DNA from: Halieaceae bacterium
GTDB taxonomy: Bacteria; Pseudomonadota; Gammaproteobacteria; Pseudomonadales; Halieaceae
NCBI GenBank assembly: GCA_047633055.1
Contig: JBLIEI010000014.1
Coordinates: 10,833-74,832 of the forward strand
Reading direction: 5' to 3'
DNA length: 64,000 nt
Part shown: positions 12,091 to 23,054 of the stretch, in pieces
Numbering within the stretch: the first letter of the stretch is position 1
Layout: every line of letters starts with the position of its first letter
Notes under the pieces: model-generated
What the model was told of the DNA's origin: nothing
The model's input: only the letters and a program-made list of their open reading frames with translations
The model's database searches: none
Program-made: the position numbers and the translations under genes

Positions 12091-12166
12091 TCCGCTTTAG
12101 CTCAGTTGGTAGAGCAATTGACTGTTAATCAATGGGTCGCTGGTTCGAGCCCAGCAAGCGGAGCCA
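12091..12166 (+). tRNA. tRNA-Asn (anticodon GTT)
   Basis: The acceptor stem TCCGCTT/AAGCGGA is followed by G-CCA. The D-arm is AGCTCAGTTGGTAGAGC, the anticodon loop is CTGTTAA and the T-arm is GGTTCGAGCCC. Total length is 76 nt. Confidence 0.93.
12121..12166 (+). repeat. attL: 46-bp direct repeat formed by the 3' part of tRNA-Asn
   Basis: ACTGTTAATCAATGGGTCGCTGGTTCGAGCCCAGCAAGCGGAGCCA is identical to 22988-23033. Confidence 0.9.
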
Positions 12167-12173
12167 GATACAA

Positions 12174-12206: not shown

Positions 12207-12360
12207 ATGCCAAAAATAACGCAATAAATCCAAAAATAGTCCTATATTAGGACACTAGCAATTGTTTTTAGTTGCGGCTATACTTTGTGGATCGCGTACC
12301 GGAACGCAACAAGATGCAAACCGACGCAATGGGGTGAAAAGTCCAAGGCAGTTCGAAACT

Positions 12361-12384
12361 GCCGCAACTATTGCCGCAACTATT
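12361..12384 (+). repeat. tandem 12-mer GCCGCAACTATT x2 (candidate integrase arm-type site, left end)
   Basis: GCCGCAACTATTGCCGCAACTATT recurs at 22918-22941 as GCCGCAACTATTGCCGCACCTATT. Both copies are followed by an ACCCAATGA(T/C) motif. Confidence 0.5.
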
Positions 12385-12439: not shown

Positions 12440-13753
12440 ATGGCAATTCCAGAGGAAAGGACGTTCTCGAACGATACGCGGCTCCAATCGATCAAATGGC
12501 CTGGCGGATGCCGAGAGCCAAGACTCGATTTTGTCGACACACAAGAGGCTGGCCTCCGGTTCCGGATCACCCCCAAGGGAAAGCGCACTTTCGTCTATCG
12601 CTACTTTCCGAACGGCAGCAAGACCGGCAAACAGGTAACCTTGGGCACCTACCCCGCATACACCCTCAAGGAGGCGCGGGAACAGGTTCGGCAATTACGG
12701 AAGTCACGGGAAAGCGGAATCGACCCAAAGGTCGCCCTTGCCGACCAAAAACGGGCAGCGGCCGAAGCTGCTACCCCTGCCGAGGGTCGCTCGGCGCACT
12801 ACACTGTGAACGCCCTTTGCAGGGAGTGGCTCGACGATGTGCAAAATACAAAATCGAATAACACCTATAAGCAATATAAACACGTGGTTGAAAACTGGAT
12901 AAAGCCCGAGCTCGGCACTATCGCAGTTGCAAACGTTGGGCGGGACGATATCGCCAATATGCGACAGGCAATCCTAAGCAAGCGACATCGAAAAACAGGA
13001 AAGCCTCTAAACACACTCGCAAACAGATTGCAGGCGATCACGCGGGCCATGTTCAATTGGTGTATCGAAAACCGGAGCCAGAAAAGTGGGATCGAACTCA
13101 ATCCGGTTAATGGCCGCCAGAAATGGGGGGGCAAAGAAAATCCGCTTCGGCTGACCCTCCCCCCGCTAACGATCGACGCGGTTGCAAAAATCATCTACTA
13201 CGCCCGAGAGTCAAAGGCCAGCGACGCTATCCGGCTTTGTATCGAACTATGCTGGCGGATTGGACTTAGGCCGACTGAGGCCCGCACCGCCAAAAAGGGC
13301 GACTTTGATTTAAAGGCAAATATCTGGACGATACCCAAAACAAAAAACGGTATTCCCCTTCGTGTGATGTTGCCCAGCCAGGTCGCAAAGATAATCAAGA
13401 ACTATCTCGACACGCACAAATTCAATAAGTCCGACTCCATTTTCCGGAAATCCAGGGGGACAGGCCCTATGGACGCAAAACGAATCCAAAAAGTAATGAC
13501 CGCGCTTCACGACAACGAGCTATATGGCGGGAAAATGCACATCTCGCGACACGCCTTTATGTCATGGGCGAAAGCGAACAAGATCGGGCTCGACGTCCGC
13601 AACCGACTTACAAACCACGTCGACCGAAGCATCGATGCCACATACTCCCATGCAGACCTCGACGACGAGGCTCGCGAAGCATGGCATCGATATAGCAATG
13701 AGATCGAGCGCGAGATAAAGAAACTGCAAAAGAATTCGCCTAAAAAGCGATAA
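12440..13753 (+). CDS. tyrosine-type site-specific integrase (P4/CP4-57-like, DUF4102-type arm-binding N-terminus)
   Basis: The N-terminus reads GLRFRITPKGKRTFVYRYF..VTLGTYPAYTLKEAREQ. The C-terminal catalytic region carries SRHAF and ATYSH (the Tyr nucleophile context). The gene is adjacent to attL. Confidence 0.88.
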   Translation: MAIPEERTFSNDTRLQSIKWPGGCREPRLDFVDTQEAGLRFRITPKGKRTFVYRYFPNGSKTGKQVTLGTYPAYTLKEAREQVRQLRKSRESGIDPKVALADQKRAAAEAATPAEGRSAHYTVNALCREWLDDVQNTKSNNTYKQYKHVVENWIKPELGTIAVANVGRDDIANMRQAILSKRHRKTGKPLNTLANRLQAITRAMFNWCIENRSQKSGIELNPVNGRQKWGGKENPLRLTLPPLTIDAVAKIIYYARESKASDAIRLCIELCWRIGLRPTEARTAKKGDFDLKANIWTIPKTKNGIPLRVMLPSQVAKIIKNYLDTHKFNKSDSIFRKSRGTGPMDAKRIQKVMTALHDNELYGGKMHISRHAFMSWAKANKIGLDVRNRLTNHVDRSIDATYSHADLDDEAREAWHRYSNEIEREIKKLQKNSPKKR

Positions 13754-13822
13754 AATCGGGGGTGAAGGTGAACCACCACCAACCCCCCCTAATCAAAGTA
13801 CGACTAAAAAGGTAATCGTAAA

Positions 13823-14077
13823 ATGACTGATAACAATTCTACTACTAACAACAGCAATACGCCCTCTGCCAGGTCTGCCGGAGAAATCTGCAACCTGGCG
13901 GCCTCACTTGGCGCCCTGTGCGACGACGCACTCGACAACCCCCAGCAGGTAACGTCCGCCCAGCTCGTCGCCATGAAAGCCCTGGCGGGCAATATTGGCG
14001 CGCTTGCCGATCATATTGGCGGGGGTGGGTATCGAACCGATGCGCTCGAATGGATGGGGGTGAACCCAAATGCCTAG
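13823..14077 (+). CDS. hypothetical protein (84 aa), island
   Basis: The ORF has a plausible RBS (AAGGT) and an 8-nt overlap with the next ORF. It has a low-complexity N-terminus and no recognisable motif. Confidence 0.45.
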   Translation: MTDNNSTTNNSNTPSARSAGEICNLAASLGALCDDALDNPQQVTSAQLVAMKALAGNIGALADHIGGGGYRTDALEWMGVNPNA

Positions 14078-15068
14078 CTTGCCTCGCCCTAATGTGGCGC
14101 AGCCAGAGTATACCCTCGACGAGTATACCCACTACTGCGGTCTTCATCGGGATACGGTTGACCGCCAAATAGACGGGGGCGAGCTTCGGCTTGCCTCTCC
14201 CTGTCCTGACAGAACACCTGGTAGACGCGGCTGTAAATCGATCGGGATATCGCTCGAAACTATGGATCGCAAAGCGCGGGCACTATTGGGAATGATACTT
14301 GAGCGCCGACTTGCCCATTCAGAGGTAACGATCAACGAGGCCAACGGACTGCTGCGCAAAGAGCTACTGCGCGAAAAGCTACTACTGCGCAAAAAGTTAC
14401 CGCCGCGCGAAAGGATACGGCGCGGAGGCCCCCCTAAATCCCCCAAGCTGTTGAGCCTACCCCGATCAGAGCCGCCCGAATACCTGTATGAAAGCGATAT
14501 AACTCGCGACTTCAATTTGTGCCGAGGAGGTTTCCAGACACCGGAAACTAAATACGAGCATGCAGCGTGGAAACGTTATTTTTATCAAGACCTGGACGGT
14601 CGCGAATATTTGCTCTGCCGTATCACTGCGGAGTTTGTCGAGGGAAAATTTTCGGGCGAAACATTGACGGTAGATGTTGTCGGCTCAGGCGACGTTATTC
14701 CATCGGAGCAATTCGAGGGTCGCCCCGCCACCCCGGCACAAGAATCCGCACCGGCAACTATAGAGCCTTTTGTTAGCCCCCAGAGAGGCAACCCGTTAAC
14801 AAATGCGATCGTTCAATTTGGTAACAATCTATTCAAGGAATCTAAAGAGGGCGAAACTCCAGGGTGGGGGGCTGTTCTACGCGCAATGCTCGACGAAGAA
14901 GGCAGAGAAGCTATGACGGAACTCGAATGCAAATACGACAAAGATACTAACGAGTTTTTCTATACGGACAGCAACGGCAAGAAAGAACGGGTAAGCAAAA
15001 GTACGGCGAGAGGGCGATACAACAGGAGGCGAAGAAAAGCCAATAAGGATGCAATAACGACCGATTAA
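14070..15068 (+). CDS. hypothetical protein with an excisionase-like HTH N-terminus (332 aa), island
   Basis: YTLDEYTHYCGLHRDTVDRQIDGGELRLA resembles excisionase/MerR-type HTHs. A basic repeat region (LLRKELLREKLLLRKKLPPRERIRR) follows. The remainder is unrecognised. Confidence 0.5.
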   Translation: MPSLPRPNVAQPEYTLDEYTHYCGLHRDTVDRQIDGGELRLASPCPDRTPGRRGCKSIGISLETMDRKARALLGMILERRLAHSEVTINEANGLLRKELLREKLLLRKKLPPRERIRRGGPPKSPKLLSLPRSEPPEYLYESDITRDFNLCRGGFQTPETKYEHAAWKRYFYQDLDGREYLLCRITAEFVEGKFSGETLTVDVVGSGDVIPSEQFEGRPATPAQESAPATIEPFVSPQRGNPLTNAIVQFGNNLFKESKEGETPGWGAVLRAMLDEEGREAMTELECKYDKDTNEFFYTDSNGKKERVSKSTARGRYNRRRRKANKDAITTD

Positions 15069-15129
15069 CAGAAAGATAGCCATTAGCGCGCAGTAGCCCG
15101 TTTTTTGCGCGCGGGTTCGCCCTGCGCCT

Positions 15130-15166
15130 TATACCTTGCAAACATTCCAATCAAAAGCAAGGTATA
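15130..15166 (+). promoter_or_regulatory. perfect 10-bp inverted repeat TATACCTTGC-N17-GCAAGGTATA covering the RBS of the HTH gene (operator or RBS-sequestering hairpin)
   Basis: The arms at 15130-15139 and 15157-15166 are exact reverse complements. AAGG at 15159-15162 lies 8 nt upstream of the ATG at 15171. Confidence 0.45.
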
Positions 15167-15170
15167 CAAA

Positions 15171-15416
15171 ATGGGCGCCACCACCCAAACAACGCTCCAG
15201 CAACTCGCCACGGAGTGCCACGTTTCGCTCCGAAAACTCCAGCTTGATGTAAAAAGTGGGATCCTAGAGATAACCCGCGTCGGGCGGACGCCGTTCGTTA
15301 CAGAAGAGCAAAAAGAAATCTACTTTTTACGCAACCGCGTTGCGAATAGCCCACGAACGTATGCCGAGGAACGAGAGCTCGAGCGCCTAGGTTTCCGAGC
15401 TAAACCGAATGAATAA
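15171..15416 (+). CDS. excisionase-family HTH DNA-binding protein (81 aa), island
   Basis: TLQQLATECHVSLRKLQLDVKSGILEITRVGRTPFV fits the excisionase-type HTH pattern. The start was trimmed to the ATG at 15171. The gene overlaps the next gene by 8 nt. Confidence 0.55.
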   Translation: MGATTQTTLQQLATECHVSLRKLQLDVKSGILEITRVGRTPFVTEEQKEIYFLRNRVANSPRTYAEERELERLGFRAKPNE

Positions 15417-16578
15417 GTGCGCAAGCGCGTCGCCAAAGTTCCGGCGCCGACTCGAGCTACTGTTACCGAAAAGCGACTTGCTGACTAGCCTCGACTGGCC
15501 AGACGAACAGGCCTATCAATTTCTTGTCGATCTCGACCAGGATATTGATCTGGGCGATGGCGGCCAATACTCCGTAGTTGCAAAAAAGAATGCTGCCATG
15601 CGAATGCTGAATGTCGGCGTCGACCATTCAGCCGTTGCCGTCTGGTATGTGTTAGCCGACTACGCATACAAAGGCAGCAAAGGCATTTGTTTCCCAAGCC
15701 TAACAACTATAGCCGGTCGTGTGAGCCTCTCCAGGCGCGCTGTTATCCGATGGATCAATTACCTAGTCGAGCTAGGGGCCGTTGAGAGACTGACCCGAGG
15801 CAACGGCAGAAACGAAGCTACCCGATATTTCATCATTACGACCTGGAACCCGTCGTTCGGCTTACACACTAGCGGCGCAAAGGGTGACGGCAACGGCACT
15901 ATTCCTACGAAATCTAATAGTGACAGTAGCGACACCGTTCCGGCCGAAATAGTGACACCTGTGACATTAAATAGTGACACCTATGACACGCAAATAGTGA
16001 CGCAGGTGTCACACGAATCTATCTATGAAACCGGCATTAAGCCGGTTGAAATAGATAGACAGGCTAACGCGCAAAAATCTTCGGGCGCTGAGGCGCCCTG
16101 CGATTTGGTCGCTCCGCCTGGAGAGCTGCGATTGTCTGAGGTATTTCGCAGGGGGTGGGGCGGGCTTAAACCTCGCGAGGCAAAACACACACAGCGGCAA
16201 CTAGCAAAATCCATGGCTGAGGGCGACACCCCCGACGAAATAGCCGACGGCCTGTTACGACACCTGGCGTGGGCTATGGCGTGGGAAAAGCCCCCCTGGC
16301 AACTCGCAGCGCTTTTACGCACATCGAAGTATCACGACGACTGGGACACTCGGCCTCCGGCAAAAAAGGATAAACCCAAAGCAAAGGCCGCCACCAGGTC
16401 AACGCCAGCACAACTCGCCCGGAGCATCTCAGACGATGATGCGGCATCGCTCGGCCCCACCCAGGCTCGAAAAATCTTTGACGAGCACCTCAAAGGCGAT
16501 TGCAAACTTTGCTCCAGCGGGGGTGCGACTCCGCCATGCGATAGCGGGGCGCGGCTAATACGGAAAATAACAGGCTAA
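15409..16578 (+). CDS. replication-initiator-like HTH protein (389 aa), island
   Basis: FPSLTTIAGRVSLSRRAVIRWINYLVELGAVERL is typical of HTH_36/Rep-O-like winged-helix initiators. The gene contains an iteron array (15916-16012). Confidence 0.55.
   Translation: MNKCASASPKFRRRLELLLPKSDLLTSLDWPDEQAYQFLVDLDQDIDLGDGGQYSVVAKKNAAMRMLNVGVDHSAVAVWYVLADYAYKGSKGICFPSLTTIAGRVSLSRRAVIRWINYLVELGAVERLTRGNGRNEATRYFIITTWNPSFGLHTSGAKGDGNGTIPTKSNSDSSDTVPAEIVTPVTLNSDTYDTQIVTQVSHESIYETGIKPVEIDRQANAQKSSGAEAPCDLVAPPGELRLSEVFRRGWGGLKPREAKHTQRQLAKSMAEGDTPDEIADGLLRHLAWAMAWEKPPWQLAALLRTSKYHDDWDTRPPAKKDKPKAKAATRSTPAQLARSISDDDAASLGPTQARKIFDEHLKGDCKLCSSGGATPPCDSGARLIRKITG
15916..16012 (+). repeat. iteron array (candidate island origin of replication) inside the Rep-like gene
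   Basis: Four copies of (A)AATAGTGAC start at about 15916, 15948, 15970 and 15993. The last three are spaced 22-23 bp apart. The last copy is part of the inverted repeat GTGAC-N6-GTCAC. Confidence 0.6.
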
Positions 16579-16607
16579 CAAAAGTACCAATAATAATAGA
16601 GGCAAAA

Positions 16608-16928
16608 ATGAAACAAAAACACAAAATCGAAAATCAAAACGCGCTCGACGACCTGGCAAAGACAATCGGAAAGGTGGCCACAGAAAGTCGACGCCGGAAA
16701 CTGTGGCGACTGCATTCTGAGTTGAGCCGAACGTCTCCAGGTATACAGTCTGCACGCGCGAAAAACGTGGTGGGGTTTGTTGGCGTAAAACAGACCAAGA
16801 ACGGCAGGTATAGCGCAATGGCAGCCATTCGAGGGAAGCGAATTCACATAGGCACATTCAACAGACCGTATGAGGCCTACGCAGCGCGAGCGATTTTTCT
16901 CGCAAAGCATCGTGACGACGAAAAGTGA
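16608..16928 (+). CDS. AP2-like DNA-binding domain protein (106 aa), island
   Basis: VGFVGVKQTKNGRYSAMAAIRGKRIHIGTFNRPYEAYAARAIF matches the AP2/ERF-type fold pattern seen in phage and HNH-associated proteins. No HNH motif is present. Confidence 0.5.
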   Translation: MKQKHKIENQNALDDLAKTIGKVATESRRRKLWRLHSELSRTSPGIQSARAKNVVGFVGVKQTKNGRYSAMAAIRGKRIHIGTFNRPYEAYAARAIFLAKHRDDEK

Positions 16929-17043
16929 AATTCGCCTGAGTTCGCGCGAGTTCGTTTTGATAGTAAAAAGACAGAGCATTTCGTCGGGTTACATAGAGGA
17001 CTTACACCAATGCAAACTAAACTAATTTTTACAACATAAAGAG

Positions 17044-17331
17044 GTGTTTATGACTGACCCAGAAAACAAAGATCAAGTCGTGAGAATTGACGGCAGCGGC
17101 ACAACCTCCGCTAAAGTTCGTGAAGCGGCAAGCCTTTATCTACAGCGTGCCGGAGGCGGCCCAGAGGTGAGCTTCGCCAAGTCCCTAAGGTTCTATGCCG
17201 AGATTGGGGCTGAATTCGAAAGGCTTCGCATCCTTGGCGGAAACTTCCCGTTCTCGACCGAGCAGGCATTGAAGCTTCACGCGCAAAAAATGGCAGGGGG
17301 TCGTGAGTCGACCCACCTGGAGATCAAATAA
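17044..17331 (+). CDS. hypothetical protein (95 aa) translationally coupled to the capsid gene, island
   Basis: A good RBS (AAAGAGG) precedes it and its stop overlaps the next start (TAATG at 17329-17333). The function is unrecognised. Confidence 0.55.
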   Translation: MFMTDPENKDQVVRIDGSGTTSAKVREAASLYLQRAGGGPEVSFAKSLRFYAEIGAEFERLRILGGNFPFSTEQALKLHAQKMAGGRESTHLEIK

Positions 17332-19280
17332 TGGGGGTGAAATCCCCCACCACGCCCGACTGGCTCGAACTGTCGAACTTGTGTCGATCTGATCGAGTCG
17401 AGGGTAAAACCTGGTTCGATATGAAAGCGCAAGGGGAAACCCTCGAACTTTCGATATACGACGAAATCGGAATGTGGGGCGTTAATGGCTCCGACTTTAA
17501 ACGCGCCCTCGACGGGTTCGATAATGTTTCCGAGATTGTTTTAAATATGCACTCGCCAGGCGGATCGGTTTTCGACGGCCTGGCAATTTACAATCAACTG
17601 AAAAACCATAAAGCGAAAGTTACCGTCAAAATCGACGGCCTCGCGGCCTCAATCGCGAGCGTTATCGCTATGGCGGGGGATACGATAATTATTCCCGAGA
17701 ACGCTTTTATTATGATTCATAAACCGCGAATGCCCGCAAATGGTATCGCGGACGAATTGCGCGAAAGCGCCGATCTTTTAGATAAGGTCGAAACGACGTT
17801 GATTGCGGCCTACCGCGTCAAAACGGGTTTAACCGATTCCGATATTTCTGAAATGCTCGAGGCCGAAACATGGCTAACTGGCATCGAAGCAGTCGAGATG
17901 GGATTTGCCGACGAAATAGCCGAGCCAATCCAGGCAGCGGCTACTTTAAACAATGGCTTAATCGAGGAGTACTCTCAAATGCCAAGCAAAGCTAAAACAC
18001 TAATCAGCGCCACCCCCGCCGATAAATTCAAGGCTGCCGAACTGGCTCGCCGTACTGAGGTAAAAGCGGTATTCGCAGATTTCCCCCAGCACGACGACGT
18101 TCGCAATGGTTGCCTCGACGATATGGAGTGCTCCGCCGAGACTGCCCGCGCTAAACTGCTGGCAACTATGGGCGCCGCTGCTACTCCGAGCGCGGCAGCC
18201 ATCCACGTCGGCAACGGCTCCATAGTTCGCGACGTGCTCCAGGATGCGCTACAGGCGCGCACTGGAGCCGCCACGCTGCAAGATAAAGGCAACCCCTACC
18301 AGGCATCGAGTTTGCTTGATCTGGCGCGCGCATCGCTGATACAGAACGGTACGGGCGTTGCAACACTTGCGCCTATGCAGGTCGTAGCGGCCGCCTTTAC
18401 ACACAGCTCCGGCGACTTTGGCTCGGTTCTTTCCAATGTGGCCGAGAAATCGCTACTGAATGGCTGGAACTCCGCGCCAGAAACATATCCCCTGTGGACG
18501 CGTAAAGGCACGTTGTCATCGTTTCGGCCCGCATTGCGCGCCGGTATTGGTGGCTACCCAGTGTTGCCGTCTGTTGCAGAGGGCGCCGAGTATACACACG
18601 CCACCATGAACGACACTGGGGAAGTAATCGCCCTGGCGAAACACGGTTCCATGTTCTCAATCACCCGCGAGGCGATCATTAACGACGACCTGGACGCGTT
18701 CTACCGCATACCGGCCGGACAGGGTCGAGCGGCCATGCGGACGATCGGAAGCCTGGTGTATGCATGCCTAACTGGCAATACGGTGATGAGCGACGGCAAG
18801 GGTATATTCCATGCCGATCACGGCGGCAACACAATCGTAGACGCCCTCGACATAGGCGGCATCGCAAACATGCGTAGAATTATGCGTATGCAGACTGATA
18901 ACGCCGGACAATCTCTGAACATTGCCCCTGGTTATTTGCTCGTTCCGGCGGCGCTGGAATCGCAAGCGCAACAGGTTATCGCCTCGACGGCCGTACCTGG
19001 CGCCGACAGTAATTCCGGCATTAAGAATCCGGTCAACTCCGCAGCCGAGATCGTTGTCGAGAGTCGCCTCGATGCGGCCTCTGCTGACAGTTTTTACATG
19101 GTTGCGGGCGCTGGCGACACGATCGAGGTTGCATTCCTCGACGGCATGGACACTCCCTACCTGGAACAGCAGGCCGGTTGGAGCGTTGACGGCGTTAGCT
19201 TCAAGGTACGGATCGAAGCTGGCGTTGCGCCGATAGACTACCGTGGATTTGTTCGCGGAACTGGCGGTTTGCCCGTATAG
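17331..19280 (+). CDS. prohead protease / major capsid protein fusion (ClpP-type S14/S49 protease N-terminus, HK97-fold capsid C-terminus)
   Basis: The N-terminus reads MHSPGGSVFDGLAIYNQL..IDGLAASIASVIAMAGD..FIMIHKP, with ClpP-like Ser and His contexts. The C-terminal ~320 aa (..YPLWTRKG..GAEYTHATMND..FSITREAIINDD..) resemble phage major capsid proteins. Confidence 0.75.
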   Translation: MGVKSPTTPDWLELSNLCRSDRVEGKTWFDMKAQGETLELSIYDEIGMWGVNGSDFKRALDGFDNVSEIVLNMHSPGGSVFDGLAIYNQLKNHKAKVTVKIDGLAASIASVIAMAGDTIIIPENAFIMIHKPRMPANGIADELRESADLLDKVETTLIAAYRVKTGLTDSDISEMLEAETWLTGIEAVEMGFADEIAEPIQAAATLNNGLIEEYSQMPSKAKTLISATPADKFKAAELARRTEVKAVFADFPQHDDVRNGCLDDMECSAETARAKLLATMGAAATPSAAAIHVGNGSIVRDVLQDALQARTGAATLQDKGNPYQASSLLDLARASLIQNGTGVATLAPMQVVAAAFTHSSGDFGSVLSNVAEKSLLNGWNSAPETYPLWTRKGTLSSFRPALRAGIGGYPVLPSVAEGAEYTHATMNDTGEVIALAKHGSMFSITREAIINDDLDAFYRIPAGQGRAAMRTIGSLVYACLTGNTVMSDGKGIFHADHGGNTIVDALDIGGIANMRRIMRMQTDNAGQSLNIAPGYLLVPAALESQAQQVIASTAVPGADSNSGIKNPVNSAAEIVVESRLDAASADSFYMVAGAGDTIEVAFLDGMDTPYLEQQAGWSVDGVSFKVRIEAGVAPIDYRGFVRGTGGLPV

Positions 19281-19386
19281 GTTTACCCGCTATTGGCATG
19301 GCGGGAACCCCTAAGGGGTGAAAGTCCGGAACTTGAAGAACTCCGGCAAAAGTCCTGGCGGTTTAGTTGGCCGTTAGGCGCCTCGA

Positions 19387-19428
19387 GGGGGCGCATTTGG
19401 CTGGAAGCCTCATGCGTCCCCTTTTTTT
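19387..19428 (+). terminator. rho-independent terminator after the capsid gene
   Basis: GGGG(G)CGCAT (19387-19396) pairs with ATGCGTCCCC (19412-19421) and is followed by T7 (19422-19428). Confidence 0.65.
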
Positions 19429-19451
19429 GAAAAGGTACTCCCGCCGATCTG

Positions 19452-19502
19452 AGGTATACGGGGGCGCGGAGTCGCAGTCGCTCACTATTTACGAATTTTT
19501 TT
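19452..19502 (+). promoter_or_regulatory. lambda cosN-like sequence (candidate cohesive-end packaging site of the island)
   Basis: The island sequence is AGGTATACGGGGGCGCGGAGTCGCAGTCGCTCACTATTTACGAATTTTTTT. As I recall it, lambda reads AGGTTACG|GGGCGGCGACCT|CGCGGGTTTTCGCTATTTATGAAAATTTT. The site lies directly upstream of a Nu1 homologue. Confidence 0.5.
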
Positions 19503-19503
19503 A

Positions 19504-20055
19504 ATGGAGGTTGTTGTTTTGTCGAGCACAGATATAGACCCGCTCTGGTTAAACAAACGTGACGCCGCAGCGTCGGTGGGGATTTCAACACAAGCCTTTA
19601 GTAAATGGGGTGTAAAGCCCGTTCAGCGTTCAGGCCGCGAGGTGTTTTTCACTGTTCGCGATATCGTCGACAATCGGGTTGAGAGAGCACTTAAAGGAGC
19701 AAACGGCGAAACTCCCGGGGAACTCGAGAATTTGGGGCGCAAGAAGTATCTCGAGGACTACCGTCTCGCGAAAGCCCGTCGAATAGCTCAAGAGCAAAAA
19801 AATGATCTCGCTGCCGGAACAATGATTCCGACTGATTTCGCAACGTTTGCACTCTCGAAGATTGCCGCTCGAATCGCCTCGATCCTGGACACGCTCCCGC
19901 TAACTATGCGGCGGGCTCACCCGGACCTCGAGTCTCGACACATTGATTCCTTTACTCGCGAAGTTGCGAAGGCGCGAAACGTGGCGGCGGAGGTCGACGA
20001 AATCCTACCTGAGTTGGTCGAGGAATATGCCGCCCTTACAAACGAGTCAAGTTAA
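19504..20055 (+). CDS. terminase small subunit, lambda Nu1-like
   Basis: TFALSKIAARIASILDTLPLTMRRAHPDLESRHIDSFTREVAKARNVAAEVDEILPELVEEYA aligns closely with lambda Nu1 (TFVLSRIAGEIASILDGLPLSVQRRFPELENRHVDFLKRDIIKAMNKAAALDELIPGLLSEYI). An N-terminal HTH (AASVGISTQAFSKWG) is present. Confidence 0.85.
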   Translation: MEVVVLSSTDIDPLWLNKRDAAASVGISTQAFSKWGVKPVQRSGREVFFTVRDIVDNRVERALKGANGETPGELENLGRKKYLEDYRLAKARRIAQEQKNDLAAGTMIPTDFATFALSKIAARIASILDTLPLTMRRAHPDLESRHIDSFTREVAKARNVAAEVDEILPELVEEYAALTNESS

Positions 20056-20320: not shown

Positions 20321-22339
20321 TCACCTCAGCAATTTATTAACTCGATCGATTAGGCCCGACCACTGGGCAGCTTCATTTTCTTGAAGGTCGGCGGCAGTGT
20401 GGTCTCTAGTCCATCGGACATATGCTTTCGCCAATTTATACTTCGAAAACCCCTCAACGTCAGAGGTAAAAATATCTACTATCGGTCTTCCCGGTTGACT
20501 TAGAGCCGCGCTAGAAGTATCGACGCCAAACTCACTTGCAACAATGCTGATCAGCGTTCCCCTAAGCAGGTCTTCGATTTCGGCTTTTTCCACTCCCGAG
20601 CAATAGTCTTTAGTTCTAAGAATATTTTTGTTACCTAGAGTGTGGACCAGATTTTCTTGTTGTGCTGCTTGATCGCCAGCGGCGTCAGAGTCTAATAGGG
20701 CAGCGACCTTTAATCTGTGTGCGTGCAATATAGTTGCGTAGTAAACAAGCTTTCCTGCGGAGTTTGCAAAAACCAGAGAAATTTTATTGTTTAAATCAAT
20801 AATCTCACTCTCCCGAAGCATTGCGGACGTAGATTCCAGGTACCAATAGTCGGTGATGCCCTCCATGACTAGATTTCTACTCTGCGAAAAAAGGCTGCTA
20901 GCAAGGTCGTAGCCAAGGGCTTCTTGCAGGGGCAGCAATCCAGCGGGATCACCAGACGAAATGGCTAGGTGAACTTTCGTGCCTTCGGCTCTCGTCTTCA
21001 TTTCAACCACTCTGACGATATCTAATTCGTCGGGCCCCACTAGAAACGGAGAATGTGTTGAAAAAAGAGTTTGGTTCGCTGCCGCAAGCCGCGATAGGGT
21101 GTTTCTAAATTCACATTGCTTGAGCCCATGTAGGCTCATTCCGGGCTCGTCCAACAATAGAATTGCGTTCTCGTGTTTGTCTATCGCCTCCGCGAAAAAA
21201 ACAACGAAGAATGAAACAAGCCATTGAAAGCCCTCGGATCGTTGATCCAATTCGATATCCACTCCAAGATCATCTTCCACCACAACCTTCAAGTATTGCC
21301 CATCGACCAAAACTTTCAGTTTGTCCGCCTCAGGCCGATTGGAATCAGGCAGCCAAACAGATAGTATTTCCCTTGTTAGCCGGACGCTCGCAGCGTTGAG
21401 TTGGTAACTTCTTATATCGAGATTGTCTCTATAGGTTTTAAGGGCCTCAGCGTCATTTATGCCCGGTTCGGGGGTTTTTCCTAGAGCGGAAAGCTCTCTC
21501 GGCGTAAACCCAAGTAGCTTCAAGAGGCAGATGTTTCCGTAATCAAAGAACTCATCGTCAAGTATCTGATCTTCGGTTCTTCTCGCAAGATGCTCCAAAT
21601 GAATTAAAGGTTTTACGCGAAAGTAATTATTGAAAAGAATAAAGACTGGGACCCGTTCACCGAGCGTTTTCAGCGCGGATTCCCACAAGCCGTTGAACGC
21701 AATAGCTTCAATCAATGCGTCGTATCTGGCCTCTTCTTTATCATTATCCTCATCGACAAACTCGTAGCTTTCCTCCAGCCATTTATTAAGATTTTTTGAC
21801 GTATCCCCCGAAACCCATGTGTAGTCGGCCCAATCGCTCGTTAAAGCCTTGAGCGAATCGCTAGGTTTTATTGGATCAGTATCCGATTCCTCGGGTGAAT
21901 ACTGTTTGTCCATGTGAGCGGCAATCCTGACTAAGTCCTTTTTCAAGTCTTTAAACCAAATTTTTTCCTGGCCACCCACCAGCGTATGCGTCCCTCGATT
22001 TGAATAATACCGACTAAGCTTGTATTCACTATCATGAAAAGCTTCCGGTATGAGGGCCTTGTCGGTATCTTCCAGTCTAAAGGTCCCCTCAACGACAACA
22101 GTTTCGTTCGGCTCCACTGCACCGGTCGTAACGTCATTATATTTCGACCGCGGGTAGTCTCTAAGGATGTCAAACCCCGGCGTATCCTCTGGCCGATTTA
22201 GCTGTTGCAAGGCCCTAAATAAAACTGTTTTTCCAGCTTCATTGGGGCCGACTAAAATTGTTTTTAAGTCTTCAATTTCGAATTCCGTAGAATCTACAAT
22301 GCTTCGATAGCTCTGAACTCTTGCTTTTACTAATTTCAT
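20321..22339 (-). CDS. OLD-family nuclease-like protein: ABC/AAA_15-type ATPase fused to a C-terminal TOPRIM domain (672 aa)
   Basis: Walker A is GPNEAGKT (aa 31-38), the signature-like motif is SEGFQWLV, Walker B is ILLLDEPGMSLH and the H-loop is FSTHSPF. The TOPRIM Glu (NLVMEGITDYWYL) and DxD (LLDSDAAGD) are present. Sampled 60-nt lines are ~35-47% GC against ~57-60% in neighbouring genes. Confidence 0.75.
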   Translation of the reverse strand: MKLVKARVQSYRSIVDSTEFEIEDLKTILVGPNEAGKTVLFRALQQLNRPEDTPGFDILRDYPRSKYNDVTTGAVEPNETVVVEGTFRLEDTDKALIPEAFHDSEYKLSRYYSNRGTHTLVGGQEKIWFKDLKKDLVRIAAHMDKQYSPEESDTDPIKPSDSLKALTSDWADYTWVSGDTSKNLNKWLEESYEFVDEDNDKEEARYDALIEAIAFNGLWESALKTLGERVPVFILFNNYFRVKPLIHLEHLARRTEDQILDDEFFDYGNICLLKLLGFTPRELSALGKTPEPGINDAEALKTYRDNLDIRSYQLNAASVRLTREILSVWLPDSNRPEADKLKVLVDGQYLKVVVEDDLGVDIELDQRSEGFQWLVSFFVVFFAEAIDKHENAILLLDEPGMSLHGLKQCEFRNTLSRLAAANQTLFSTHSPFLVGPDELDIVRVVEMKTRAEGTKVHLAISSGDPAGLLPLQEALGYDLASSLFSQSRNLVMEGITDYWYLESTSAMLRESEIIDLNNKISLVFANSAGKLVYYATILHAHRLKVAALLDSDAAGDQAAQQENLVHTLGNKNILRTKDYCSGVEKAEIEDLLRGTLISIVASEFGVDTSSAALSQPGRPIVDIFTSDVEGFSKYKLAKAYVRWTRDHTAADLQENEAAQWSGLIDRVNKLLR

Positions 22340-22513: not shown

Positions 22514-22855
22514 CTACTTAACGCTATCGACCAGCGCCACGGCAAGCGCCCCAACTCCAACAACGAATCCCAAGAGTACAAGGGCTGAAGCGACCCGAAG
22601 CACCGTGTTAGTGGTAGTACCGATCTTTTCACCGTAGCGTTCAAGATTCGCCAACAGTATGGTAATTGCAACAATCGAAGCCAGAATGCACACACCAAGC
22701 CCAGCGGCTACGAACGGAATTAACTGGGTGCCTAACTGCCCGGCGCTGAGGTCACTGAGAAGGGCTGCACAAACAGCAAGCCCCGCAGTAGAGACCGTGG
22801 CAAGGTGCTTGTAGAGGTCGATTGCTATCTTGCGCTTTTCAACACCGATGTTCAT
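22514..22855 (-). CDS. small integral membrane protein (about 113 aa, 3 predicted TM helices)
   Basis: Three hydrophobic stretches are present: LATVSTAGLAVCAALL, LIPFVAAGLGVCILASIVAITILL and VLRVASALVLLGFVVGVGALAVALV. The ORF-track start at 22873 is a TTG, so the first ATG at 22855 is used here. The start is uncertain. Confidence 0.5.
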   Translation of the reverse strand: MNIGVEKRKIAIDLYKHLATVSTAGLAVCAALLSDLSAGQLGTQLIPFVAAGLGVCILASIVAITILLANLERYGEKIGTTTNTVLRVASALVLLGFVVGVGALAVALVDSVK

Positions 22856-22917
22856 GCTGGAAGGATAACCCAACTAGCCAATACACTGAAACGTTGCGGT
22901 AAACCTACAGAAAGAAT

Positions 22918-22941
22918 GCCGCAACTATTGCCGCACCTATT
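22918..22941 (+). repeat. tandem 12-mer GCCGCAACTATT/GCCGCACCTATT (candidate integrase arm-type site, right end)
   Basis: A near-identical copy of 12361-12384, in the same orientation, lying 47 bp inside attR. Confidence 0.5.
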
Positions 22942-22987
22942 ATAGGAATATTACCCAATGATCACTATTTTAGAGACTTTGCGAATA

Positions 22988-23033
22988 ACTGTTAATCAAT
23001 GGGTCGCTGGTTCGAGCCCAGCAAGCGGAGCCA
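22988..23033 (+). repeat. attR: 46-bp direct repeat (duplicated 3' part of tRNA-Asn)
   Basis: Identical to 12121-12166. The sequence diverges immediately on both sides. Confidence 0.9.
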
Positions 23034-23054
23034 TATTTAGTATTGAATATCAAA

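Follow-up and report, generated by a model that had tools for sequence, protein, structure and literature searches.

The window analyzed here, 64,000 nt of the Halieaceae bacterium contig JBLIEI010000014.1 (contig positions 10,833-74,832; all coordinates below are positions in the window), contains a genomic island of 10,867 bp that appears to be a phage satellite of the Gram-negative phage-inducible chromosomal island (GN-PICI) type. The integration target is a tRNA-Asn (GTT) gene on the plus strand (12091..12166), which is predicted by ARAGORN and matches the Rfam tRNA family with 71.5 bits. The island length is set by two direct repeats of 56 nt, attL (12114..12169) and attR (22981..23036), that are 93% identical and share an exact core of 46 nt (12121-12166 in attL). 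The repeated block comprises the last 53 nt of the tRNA gene and the next 3 nt, and attR repeats the 3' end of tRNA-Asn in part. Nine open reading frames (ORFs), all on the plus strand, occupy the region between attL and position 20055, and two cargo genes on the minus strand fill the rest of the island, from 20055 to attR. A preliminary description of this DNA had recognized an island of about 10.9 kb starting from attL at tRNA-Asn, with nine co-directional genes, and both points are borne out by the distance between the repeats, the ORF list and the profile matches; it also drew the span of interest to 20055, where the gene set stands and the island end does not, since the minus-strand cargo continues to attR.

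The gene at 17331..19280 (plus strand) encodes a 649-aa fusion of a ClpP-like prohead protease, a scaffold-linker segment and a major capsid protein (MCP) of the HK97 fold, as had been proposed and as the matches to NF045540 (764 bits), PF00574 and PF25209 confirm. NCBI lists a protein identical to that of the island under a Halieaceae metagenome-assembled genome, the kind of source from which the window derives. The fusion has thousands of homologs, and the residues S107, H130 and D151 are kept across the 86 that were aligned, the sole exception being one D-to-E replacement at position 151. The MCP of the related satellite L003 is 83% identical to the window MCP at the protein level, and comparison of the two fusion genes yields a ratio of nonsynonymous to synonymous substitution rates (dN/dS) of 0.11 overall and 0.05 in the MCP domain. 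Because the catalytic residues are intact and purifying selection is strong, the capsid gene appears to be functional and maintained rather than decaying.

A survey of fusion loci (an alignment-seeded scan with one genome per species, from which the best 80 loci were taken) shows that ~85% of these are complete lambda-like prophages with the gene order Nu1, gpA, W, portal, fusion, cement, tail. The closest relatives of the window are, however, not phages but compact islands or island-bearing contigs, namely, the marine loci L003, L001/L002 (Halioglobus japonicus), L005 (Halioglobus sp.), L092 and L093; no portal or large terminase (TerL) gene is found in L001, L003, L005, L092 or L093. The marine loci share a layout that consists of an integrase, small ORFs, a protein of the AlpA or HTH_17 (helix-turn-helix, HTH) type, a swappable replicon, a homolog of the small protein orf95, the fusion, a cos site, and cargo. 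In a neighbor-joining tree of the MCPs, the six marine satellite proteins (window, L001, L003, L005, L092, L093) group into a single clade, with marine phage MCPs as its sister, and seven proteins from enterobacterial islands (L079, L033, L039, L047, L048, L061, L068) form another, separate clade. The segment that follows the protease domain is 90-98 aa long in 13 of 13 satellite fusions (90 aa in the window) vs 101-144 aa in 73 of 73 phage proteins, and a P/A/Q-rich linker in this position (around residues 196-285 of the window protein) is present in every phage homolog and absent in both satellite clades. Three residues that are conserved in the phages, R329, G353 and D397, are changed in both satellite clades as well. 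The linker loss and these replacements may reflect convergent adaptation; the shared pattern is a lead rather than proof because it involves two evolutionary events only.

The start of the fusion gene is overlapped by the stop codon of orf95 (17044..17331, plus strand), which encodes a lineage-specific small helical protein. Homologs of orf95 lie directly upstream of, or overlap, the fusion start in all six marine satellites, and none is found in ~75 phage loci or in the enterobacterial islands. An exhaustive phmmer search identifies 6 representatives among 1.84 billion proteins, a word-index search returns the self-match only, and a scan of Joint Genome Institute metagenomes with the orf95 profile yields one 2.5-kb contig. 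For orf95, the frequency of nonsynonymous differences (pN) is well below that of synonymous differences (pS), with a nominal dN/dS of 0.10-0.19 that is unreliable because dS is saturated. An AlphaFold model built from 4 sequences is a low-confidence three-helix bundle (predicted local distance difference test score, pLDDT, of 59), and a Foldseek search with this model against the PDB gives nothing below E = 1. Two candidate identities, a remnant of the portal C-terminus and a gpW homolog, were rejected, there being no similarity to either. In the protein P0123 (2736 aa), 26 repeated stretches resemble residues 10-42 of orf95.

The capsid stop and the start of the terS gene are separated by 223 nt that are more conserved among the relatives than the surrounding coding DNA. 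The first part of this sequence is a conserved hairpin region (19290..19428, plus strand) that ends in an intrinsic terminator (stem 19387-19421, T-run 19422-19428). This region, with the motifs GGGGTGAAAGTCC... and GGCAAAAGTCC..., is kept in five satellites with compensatory pair changes and matches no Rfam family; its possible roles are to shield cos from transcription or to function as an RNA element. Next comes a lambda-type cos site (19433..19502, plus strand) with a cosQ-like AGGTACT at 19433-19439, a nick predicted after 19460, and a predicted 12-nt cohesive end GGGGCGCGGAGT at 19461-19472, then CTATTTACGAATTTTTTT. The order in the island is AGGTACT-N21-GGGGCGCGGAGT CGCAGTCGCTCA CTATTTACGAATTTTTTT, where the N21 spacer ends in TACG, compared to GGGTCCT-N23-GGGCGGCGACCT CGCGGGTTTTCG CTATTTATGAAAATTTT at the lambda cos junction. 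On the right side of the nick, the island and lambda agree at 27 of 41 nt, ungapped and in register, and nowhere else in the 64 kb does the lambda cos core find a better ungapped match than in this block upstream of terS. The cos block is common to all six marine satellites. Both the intact Spongiibacter prophage L004/L103 and four further IMG/VR phages of its type contain an identical 16-mer, at a distance of 51 nt upstream of the Nu1 gene. When IMG/VR is scanned for the 16-mer, 10 of the 15 matches come without any of the query proteins (integrase, initiator, orf95, MCP fusion, small terminase, TerL, portal, cement) and may be chance matches.

The gene at 19504..20055 (plus strand) encodes a full-length small terminase (TerS) of the Nu1 type (183 aa; PF07471, E = 1e-19; phrog_57, E = 1.3e-36), in agreement with the preliminary description. 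This protein is 65% identical to Nu1 of the prophage L006, 50% to that of L004, and 37% to lambda Nu1, and the similarity includes the C-terminal LPELVEEY segment; in lambda Nu1, the C-terminal segment binds gpA. Given its closeness to the L006 protein, the full-length TerS may be a later capture from a phage. The island appears to carry the cis site and the specificity subunit of lambda-type packaging, without the motor subunit or the portal. In three relatives, cos is followed by a gene for a short protein of 71-137 aa (8492-8866 in L003, 8225-8638 in L093, 6245-6460 in L092) that contains the N-terminal winged-helix motif of Nu1 only, without the gpA-binding C-terminus.

None of the island proteins has a profile match (Pfam, PHROG, NCBIfam) to portal, TerL, tail or lysis proteins, and a tblastn search that used portal, gpA and cement sequences from related phages as queries detects nothing across the whole window, pseudogene fragments included. 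The absence of portal, TerL, tail and lysin genes had been claimed before, and sequence profiles detect no portal or TerL fold in orf332 or orf389 either, the two products that had been named as places where such a fold might reside. The earlier suggestion of a lambda-like cos helper gains support from the cosQ/cosN arrangement next to terS, to which the sequence upstream of Nu1 in the Spongiibacter prophage is almost identical. The probable helper type is represented by lambda-like prophages with the ClpP-MCP fusion, e.g., L004/L103 from Spongiibacter, L006, and L008 from Proteus. These prophages share with the island the MCP fusion (50-56% identity), the Nu1-type TerS (50-65%), and cosQ/cosN, but encode also gpA, W, portal, cement, tail and lysis proteins, have an MCP linker of 101-144 aa, and lack orf95. 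Contigs of this phage type are ~35-46 kb long, vs the 10.9 kb of the island; L004 corresponds to the IMG/VR contig L103, of 43.7 kb.

The front half of the island contains the integration and replication genes. The tyrosine integrase with an arm-binding domain (12440..13753, plus strand; PF13356, Arm-DNA-bind_3; PF00589, Phage_integrase; phrog_1) is 93% identical to the integrase of L003, which is also located at tRNA-Asn. The 389-aa protein encoded at 15409..16578 (plus strand) is a lambda-O-like replication initiator with an HTH_36 domain (PF13730, E = 5.7e-11) that matches phrog_270, phrog_678 and phrog_391, all annotated as "replication initiation O-like"; its HTH region is 27% identical to the initiator of the prophage L004. 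Four iterons of ~20 nt (AAATAGTGACA..., repeat family D2) lie within the initiator gene (15915..16011, plus strand) and are a probable ori, the lambda ori likewise consisting of iterons within gene O. What had been called a Rep-like initiator with iterons is substantiated by these matches.

Comparison of the window with L003 reveals nucleotide identity of 87% for the integrase and att, 77% for the capsid gene and 78% for cos, with unrelated regulation and replication modules (HTH_36 initiator vs AAA_25). Among the marine relatives, the replicon is AAA_25 in L001, L003 and L005 and a D5 primase in L093, and the HTH_36 type also occurs; the regulator is AlpA in L001 and L005 and HTH_17 in L092, with none detected in L003 and L093. 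The satellites are mosaic. The islands for which the size was mapped span 10.0-11.6 kb, both in the marine (window, L001, L005) and in the enterobacterial group (L039, L061, L068), the latter three being located at a tRNA with the CAT anticodon. The enterobacterial L079 from Buttiauxella consists of genes for an integrase, AlpA, a D5-type primase, a 70-aa ORF, the ClpP-MCP fusion, and a Nu1/DUF1441 TerS. In L033 (2621-15785, Rahnella victoriana) and L047 (3254-16206, Kluyvera genomosp. 1), an 11-kb island with its own integrase and an intact MCP fusion resides inside a lambda-like prophage, where it splits the ClpP-MCP gene of the prophage at about residue 125. This is the arrangement of helper-embedded PICIs, which insert at C:CLP_protease:110 (PMC10111431). 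Because both islands are embedded in the prophage ClpP-MCP gene, the satellite type is directly linked to the lambda-like phage type.

The preliminary description assumed that classical PICIs lack an MCP of their own and concluded that the island fits no known class and may be a distinct family. The premise holds for most of the Gram-positive Staphylococcus aureus pathogenicity islands (SaPIs). For GN-PICIs, however, it is wrong: no other late gene is captured by them as often as that of the MCP, which 21 of the 29 reference PICIs carry (Mageeney et al. 2023, PMC10111431). The conclusion of a distinct family does not follow because GN-PICIs do carry major capsid genes, and gene sets comparable to that of the island are found in EcCICFT073 and in the Buttiauxella L079. 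According to Fillol-Salom et al. 2018 (PMC6092414), EcCICFT073 codes for a head decoration protein in addition to a capsid protein; its RefSeq record lists int, an HTH protein, a primase, a single-stranded DNA-binding protein, a 68-aa ORF, an MCP of the lambda E type, and a gpD-like protein, and contains no portal or TerL. As in the island, a small ORF overlaps the start of the MCP gene in EcCICFT073, a gene of the lambda E type; the two MCPs show no similarity to each other and represent analogous captures from different MCP families. Among the described PICIs, one Escherichia coli genotype at tRNA-Ile2 combines a CLP_protease gene with the absence of alpA (PMC10111431). The lack of a divergent repressor, which had been taken for an anomaly, is not one either, given that a co-directional layout is normal for GN-PICIs (PMC6092414, PMC10111431), where HTH_17 proteins are counted with AlpA in the integration zone (PMC10111431).

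Five components make up the PICI core according to de Sousa et al. 2023 (PMC10085698): integrase, regulator, primase-replicase, capsid morphogenesis and terS. With GN-PICIs, the island shares the compact size (~10-11 kb, against a general range of about 10-20 kb for these small att-flanked elements), the insertion at a specific chromosomal site in a tRNA gene, and the co-directional arrangement of the life-cycle genes, with the integrase at one end, eight further plus-strand genes, and no divergent repressor of the Stl type. Also shared are a replicon of its own with ori repeats (here, the O-like initiator with four internal iterons), a captured capsid gene of the helper type in the late zone (the ClpP-MCP fusion), TerS and/or cos (here, both), the absence of portal, TerL, tail and lysis genes, and an accessory or defense slot at the far end. 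The differences are in the hosts, which are Enterobacterales and Pasteurellaceae for GN-PICIs and marine Halieaceae (Cellvibrionales) for the island, and in the missing AlpA match, the lambda-O-like initiator in place of the primase, the presence of orf95, and the separate MCP clade.

Other satellite types show more limited correspondence. Capsid-forming PICIs (cf-PICIs; Alqurainy 2023, de Sousa 2023) resemble the island in the front half with integrase, regulator and replicon, in having their own HK97-fold capsid protein and protease as well as TerS, and in the dependence on helper tails, which is proposed for the island here. However, they are set apart by the portal, head-tail adaptor, connector, TerL and, usually, HNH genes, with at least 9 of the 11 core components (PMC10085698), and none of the portal, adaptor, connector, TerL or HNH proteins of cf-PICIs is matched in the island by profile or tblastn searches. 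Ccm (cos-phage capsid morphogenesis) of SaPIbov5 is likewise a homolog of a helper capsid protein that is encoded by a satellite of a cos phage and enters small capsids, but the host is Gram-positive and Ccm, an MCP paralog diverged to 23% identity, requires the capsid protein of the helper, unlike the island fusion, which is a complete protease-scaffold-MCP protein, 50-56% identical to its phage homologs. For the P4-like components Sid, Psu, Delta, Ash/epsilon and the alpha primase-helicase, there is no Pfam, PHROG or NCBIfam match among the island proteins. By its predicted gene content, the island falls outside the definitions of both cf-PICIs and P4. The marine virion encapsidated integrative mobile elements (VEIMEs; Eppley 2022) and PICMIs (minimalist chromosomal islands that are phage-inducible; Barcia-Cruz 2024) are, similarly, small integrative elements, some with TerS, that carry anti-phage cargo; in contrast to the island with its full MCP fusion, they have no capsid genes and are packaged as concatemers in helper-sized heads.

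The island is best interpreted as an integrative GN-PICI-type satellite of a lambda-like cos siphovirus, that is, a phage with Nu1, gpA, portal, ClpP-MCP fusion and cement; we put the probability of this interpretation at roughly 0.8. The sequence features of a GN-PICI appear to be present, with the caveats that there is no clear AlpA match, that the initiator is O-like, and that helper dependence is predicted. Because this architecture is already documented, the island does not represent a new class of elements. We found no GN-PICI described for the host order, Cellvibrionales, and the traits of this lineage are orf95, the lambda-O-like initiator and the short protease-capsid linker, the last being found also in the enterobacterial clade.

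Several observations weigh against this assignment. The AlpA profile (PF05930) has no match in the island, although AlpA is present in most GN-PICIs and in L001 and L005, and the replicon has an O-like initiator, which is neither the usual primase nor the primase type of the SatelliteFinder profiles; of the PICI components in that model, the integrase, capsid and terS would be expected to match, the regulator and the replication component less certainly. At the cos site, no R-sites of cosB are identified, and the distance from the predicted nick to the terS start is 43 nt only. There is no helper prophage within the 64-kb window, and an IMG/VR scan with the satellite MCP profile retrieves only phages at 50% identity or less; because no member of the marine clade was found among these viral contigs, there is no sign of encapsidated copies. 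Finally, the capsid gene of EcCICFT073 is dispensable for interference (PMC6092414) and for transfer (PMC10111431), so that a packaging role of the MCP is not a given.

Under the satellite interpretation, a life cycle can be proposed in which a signal from the helper, a lambda-like cos phage of the L004 type, would switch on the co-directional operon, and the integrase, together with one of the small HTH proteins, would excise the element. The initiator would then fire the internal ori; as the island codes for no helicase loader, the host or the helper probably provides this function. The resulting concatemers would carry one cos per 10.9 kb. The island TerS is predicted to bind near cos and to recruit the helper gpA via its conserved C-terminus, and gpA would nick the predicted cosN (after 19460), with the DNA entering heads for which the portal, TerL, cement, connectors and tail of the helper are needed. 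The most likely role of the island shell protein would be to build, or co-build, smaller shells on the helper portal or to hinder helper assembly; alternatively, four tandem copies (43.5 kb) could fill a helper-sized head, as reported for EcCICFT073. The purifying selection, the apparently convergent linker loss and the narrow size range favor a role of the capsid gene in head assembly or interference.

A more far-reaching possibility, which we consider rather unlikely, is that the island belongs to a distinct class of "shell-only" capsid-forming satellites that provide the shell, TerS and cos, and obtain the portal, TerL, connectors, cement and tail from the helper. The fusion with its short linker, perhaps helped by orf95, would assemble small procapsids on the helper portal, and such a class would be intermediate between the classical PICIs and cf-PICIs and would cover the marine and, independently, the enterobacterial lineage. 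To our knowledge, this division of labor, with the shell from the satellite and the portal from the helper, has been demonstrated for no satellite. The fusion is complete, with S107, H130 and D151 kept and dN/dS of 0.05 in the MCP domain, the satellite MCPs fall into separate clades of old origin and are not recent captures, and the island sizes are tight (10.0-11.6 kb), all of which fits a dedicated shell protein. The same is true of the contrast between the short linker in 13 of 13 satellites and the long one in 73 of 73 phages, along with the changed R329, G353 and D397, but this pattern comes from two independent lineages only. The experimental precedents point both ways: small capsids are used for the packaging of PmCI172, an element that encodes an MCP homolog (PMC6092414), whereas EcCICFT073, with its MCP, is packaged at phage size, with head filling by four copies reported, and deletion of the MCP did not relieve the interference with lambda (PMC6092414). 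Four copies of the island (43.5 kb) would also fill the normal head of a 43.7-kb helper. Even if true, this scenario would most likely be filed in the literature under PICIs, as a subtype, given that GN-PICIs with an MCP are known.

Domestication is far less probable. Under this explanation, the island is not mobilized and packaging has no part in it, the MCP fusion having been co-opted for a cellular role, e.g., as a portal-less nanocompartment or as a decoy or interference factor that acts with the OLD nuclease encoded in the cargo slot. A shell gene without a portal does resemble the encapsulin logic, a defense-type gene is present in the island, and the capsid gene of EcCICFT073 has no demonstrated packaging role (PMC6092414). 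However, the island combines a conserved cos with a full-length TerS that includes the gpA-binding C-terminus, which make sense only for terminase-driven packaging and so disfavor domestication, and the cos block is more conserved across the satellites than the flanking coding DNA. Least probable of all is a decayed lambda-like prophage that has lost the portal, TerL, tail and lysis genes: in this case, one would expect the MCP fusion, TerS and cos to have homologous counterparts in intact lambda-like prophages, as they do, but the island order is MCP, cos, TerS, in contrast to cos, TerS, TerL, W, portal, MCP in the phages, the att repeats are intact, the six marine satellites with different replicons keep the compact layout (10.0-11.6 kb in the three that were mapped) in which the satellite-specific orf95 invariably accompanies the MCP, and there are no portal or TerL pseudogene fragments. 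The monophyly of the MCP clade and the purifying selection on it speak against decay as well.

With the assignment to GN-PICIs, the host range of PICI-type satellites that have captured a capsid gene comes to include marine Cellvibrionales (Halieaceae, Halioglobus); the previously described satellites from the sea, VEIMEs and PICMIs, have no capsid genes. It also bears on the question of what the capsid genes of GN-PICIs do, and a satellite-specific function can be argued because strong purifying selection is accompanied by the same linker loss in two clades. The island provides a testable system, in that the cos cut site and the helper type are both predicted and the late module, consisting of orf95, the MCP fusion, cos and TerS, is compact.

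The remaining plus-strand genes encode small or orphan proteins. The product of orf84 (13823..14077, plus strand) is a conserved small protein of the integration zone that has no profile match in Pfam/PHROG-type searches; it is 60% identical to an 86-aa protein of L001 and 37% identical to the N-terminus of a 161-aa protein of L092. The adjacent orf332 (14070..15068, plus strand) encodes an orphan with a weak HTH_17/Cox-like motif at the N-terminus (phrog_575, Cox-like, E = 0.0067; HTH_17, E = 0.23) and no homolog among 5.8 billion clusters. A single-sequence AlphaFold model of this protein has a pLDDT of 41, too low for a fold search; judged by sequence profiles and its size of 332 aa, it does not appear to be a portal or a terminase. 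The small HTH-like protein orf103 (15105..15416, plus strand; probable start at 15168) is a candidate excisionase or regulator. It is 36% identical to an 84-aa protein of L003 that itself matches HTH_17 with E = 0.008, but has no profile match of its own, and an hhalign profile-profile comparison with AlpA proteins is not significant (probability of 12%). The "excisionase-like HTH" labels that had been attached to these two proteins are weak: HTH_17 is matched by the N-terminus of orf332 with E = 0.23 only, and orf103 has no profile match. The AP2-like binder of the preliminary description is orf106 (16608..16928, plus strand), for which the call holds: this protein matches only the AP2-type segment of the PHROG HNH endonuclease families, with the best E-value of 4.5e-7, and has no Pfam match.

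At the nucleotide level, no match is obtained when the island in its entirety is compared by megablast with 50,697 phage records, an Rfam scan with E up to 1 detects the tRNA alone, and the counts from a promoter and terminator consensus scan are at chance level, the long-loop terminator having been missed by that scan. Just inside the island ends, tandem TGCCGCAACTATT repeats of the family D3 are found on both sides, at 12360..12384 (plus strand) at the left end and at 22905..22941 (plus strand) at the right end; these are probably arm-type binding sites of the integrase. The cargo consists of a gene for an OLD-family ABC-ATPase with a TOPRIM nuclease domain (20321..22339, minus strand; PADLOC Old, E = 6.7e-22; PF13175, PF13304, PF20469), a candidate anti-phage defense protein, and a gene for a predicted membrane protein of 119 aa with no significant family match (22514..22873, minus strand). 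In the relatives, the same slot contains a TIR protein (L092), a ParA-like trio (L001), or a beta-lactamase-fold protein together with DUF4379 (L005), so that the region between terS and attR looks like a hotspot for defense or accessory genes.

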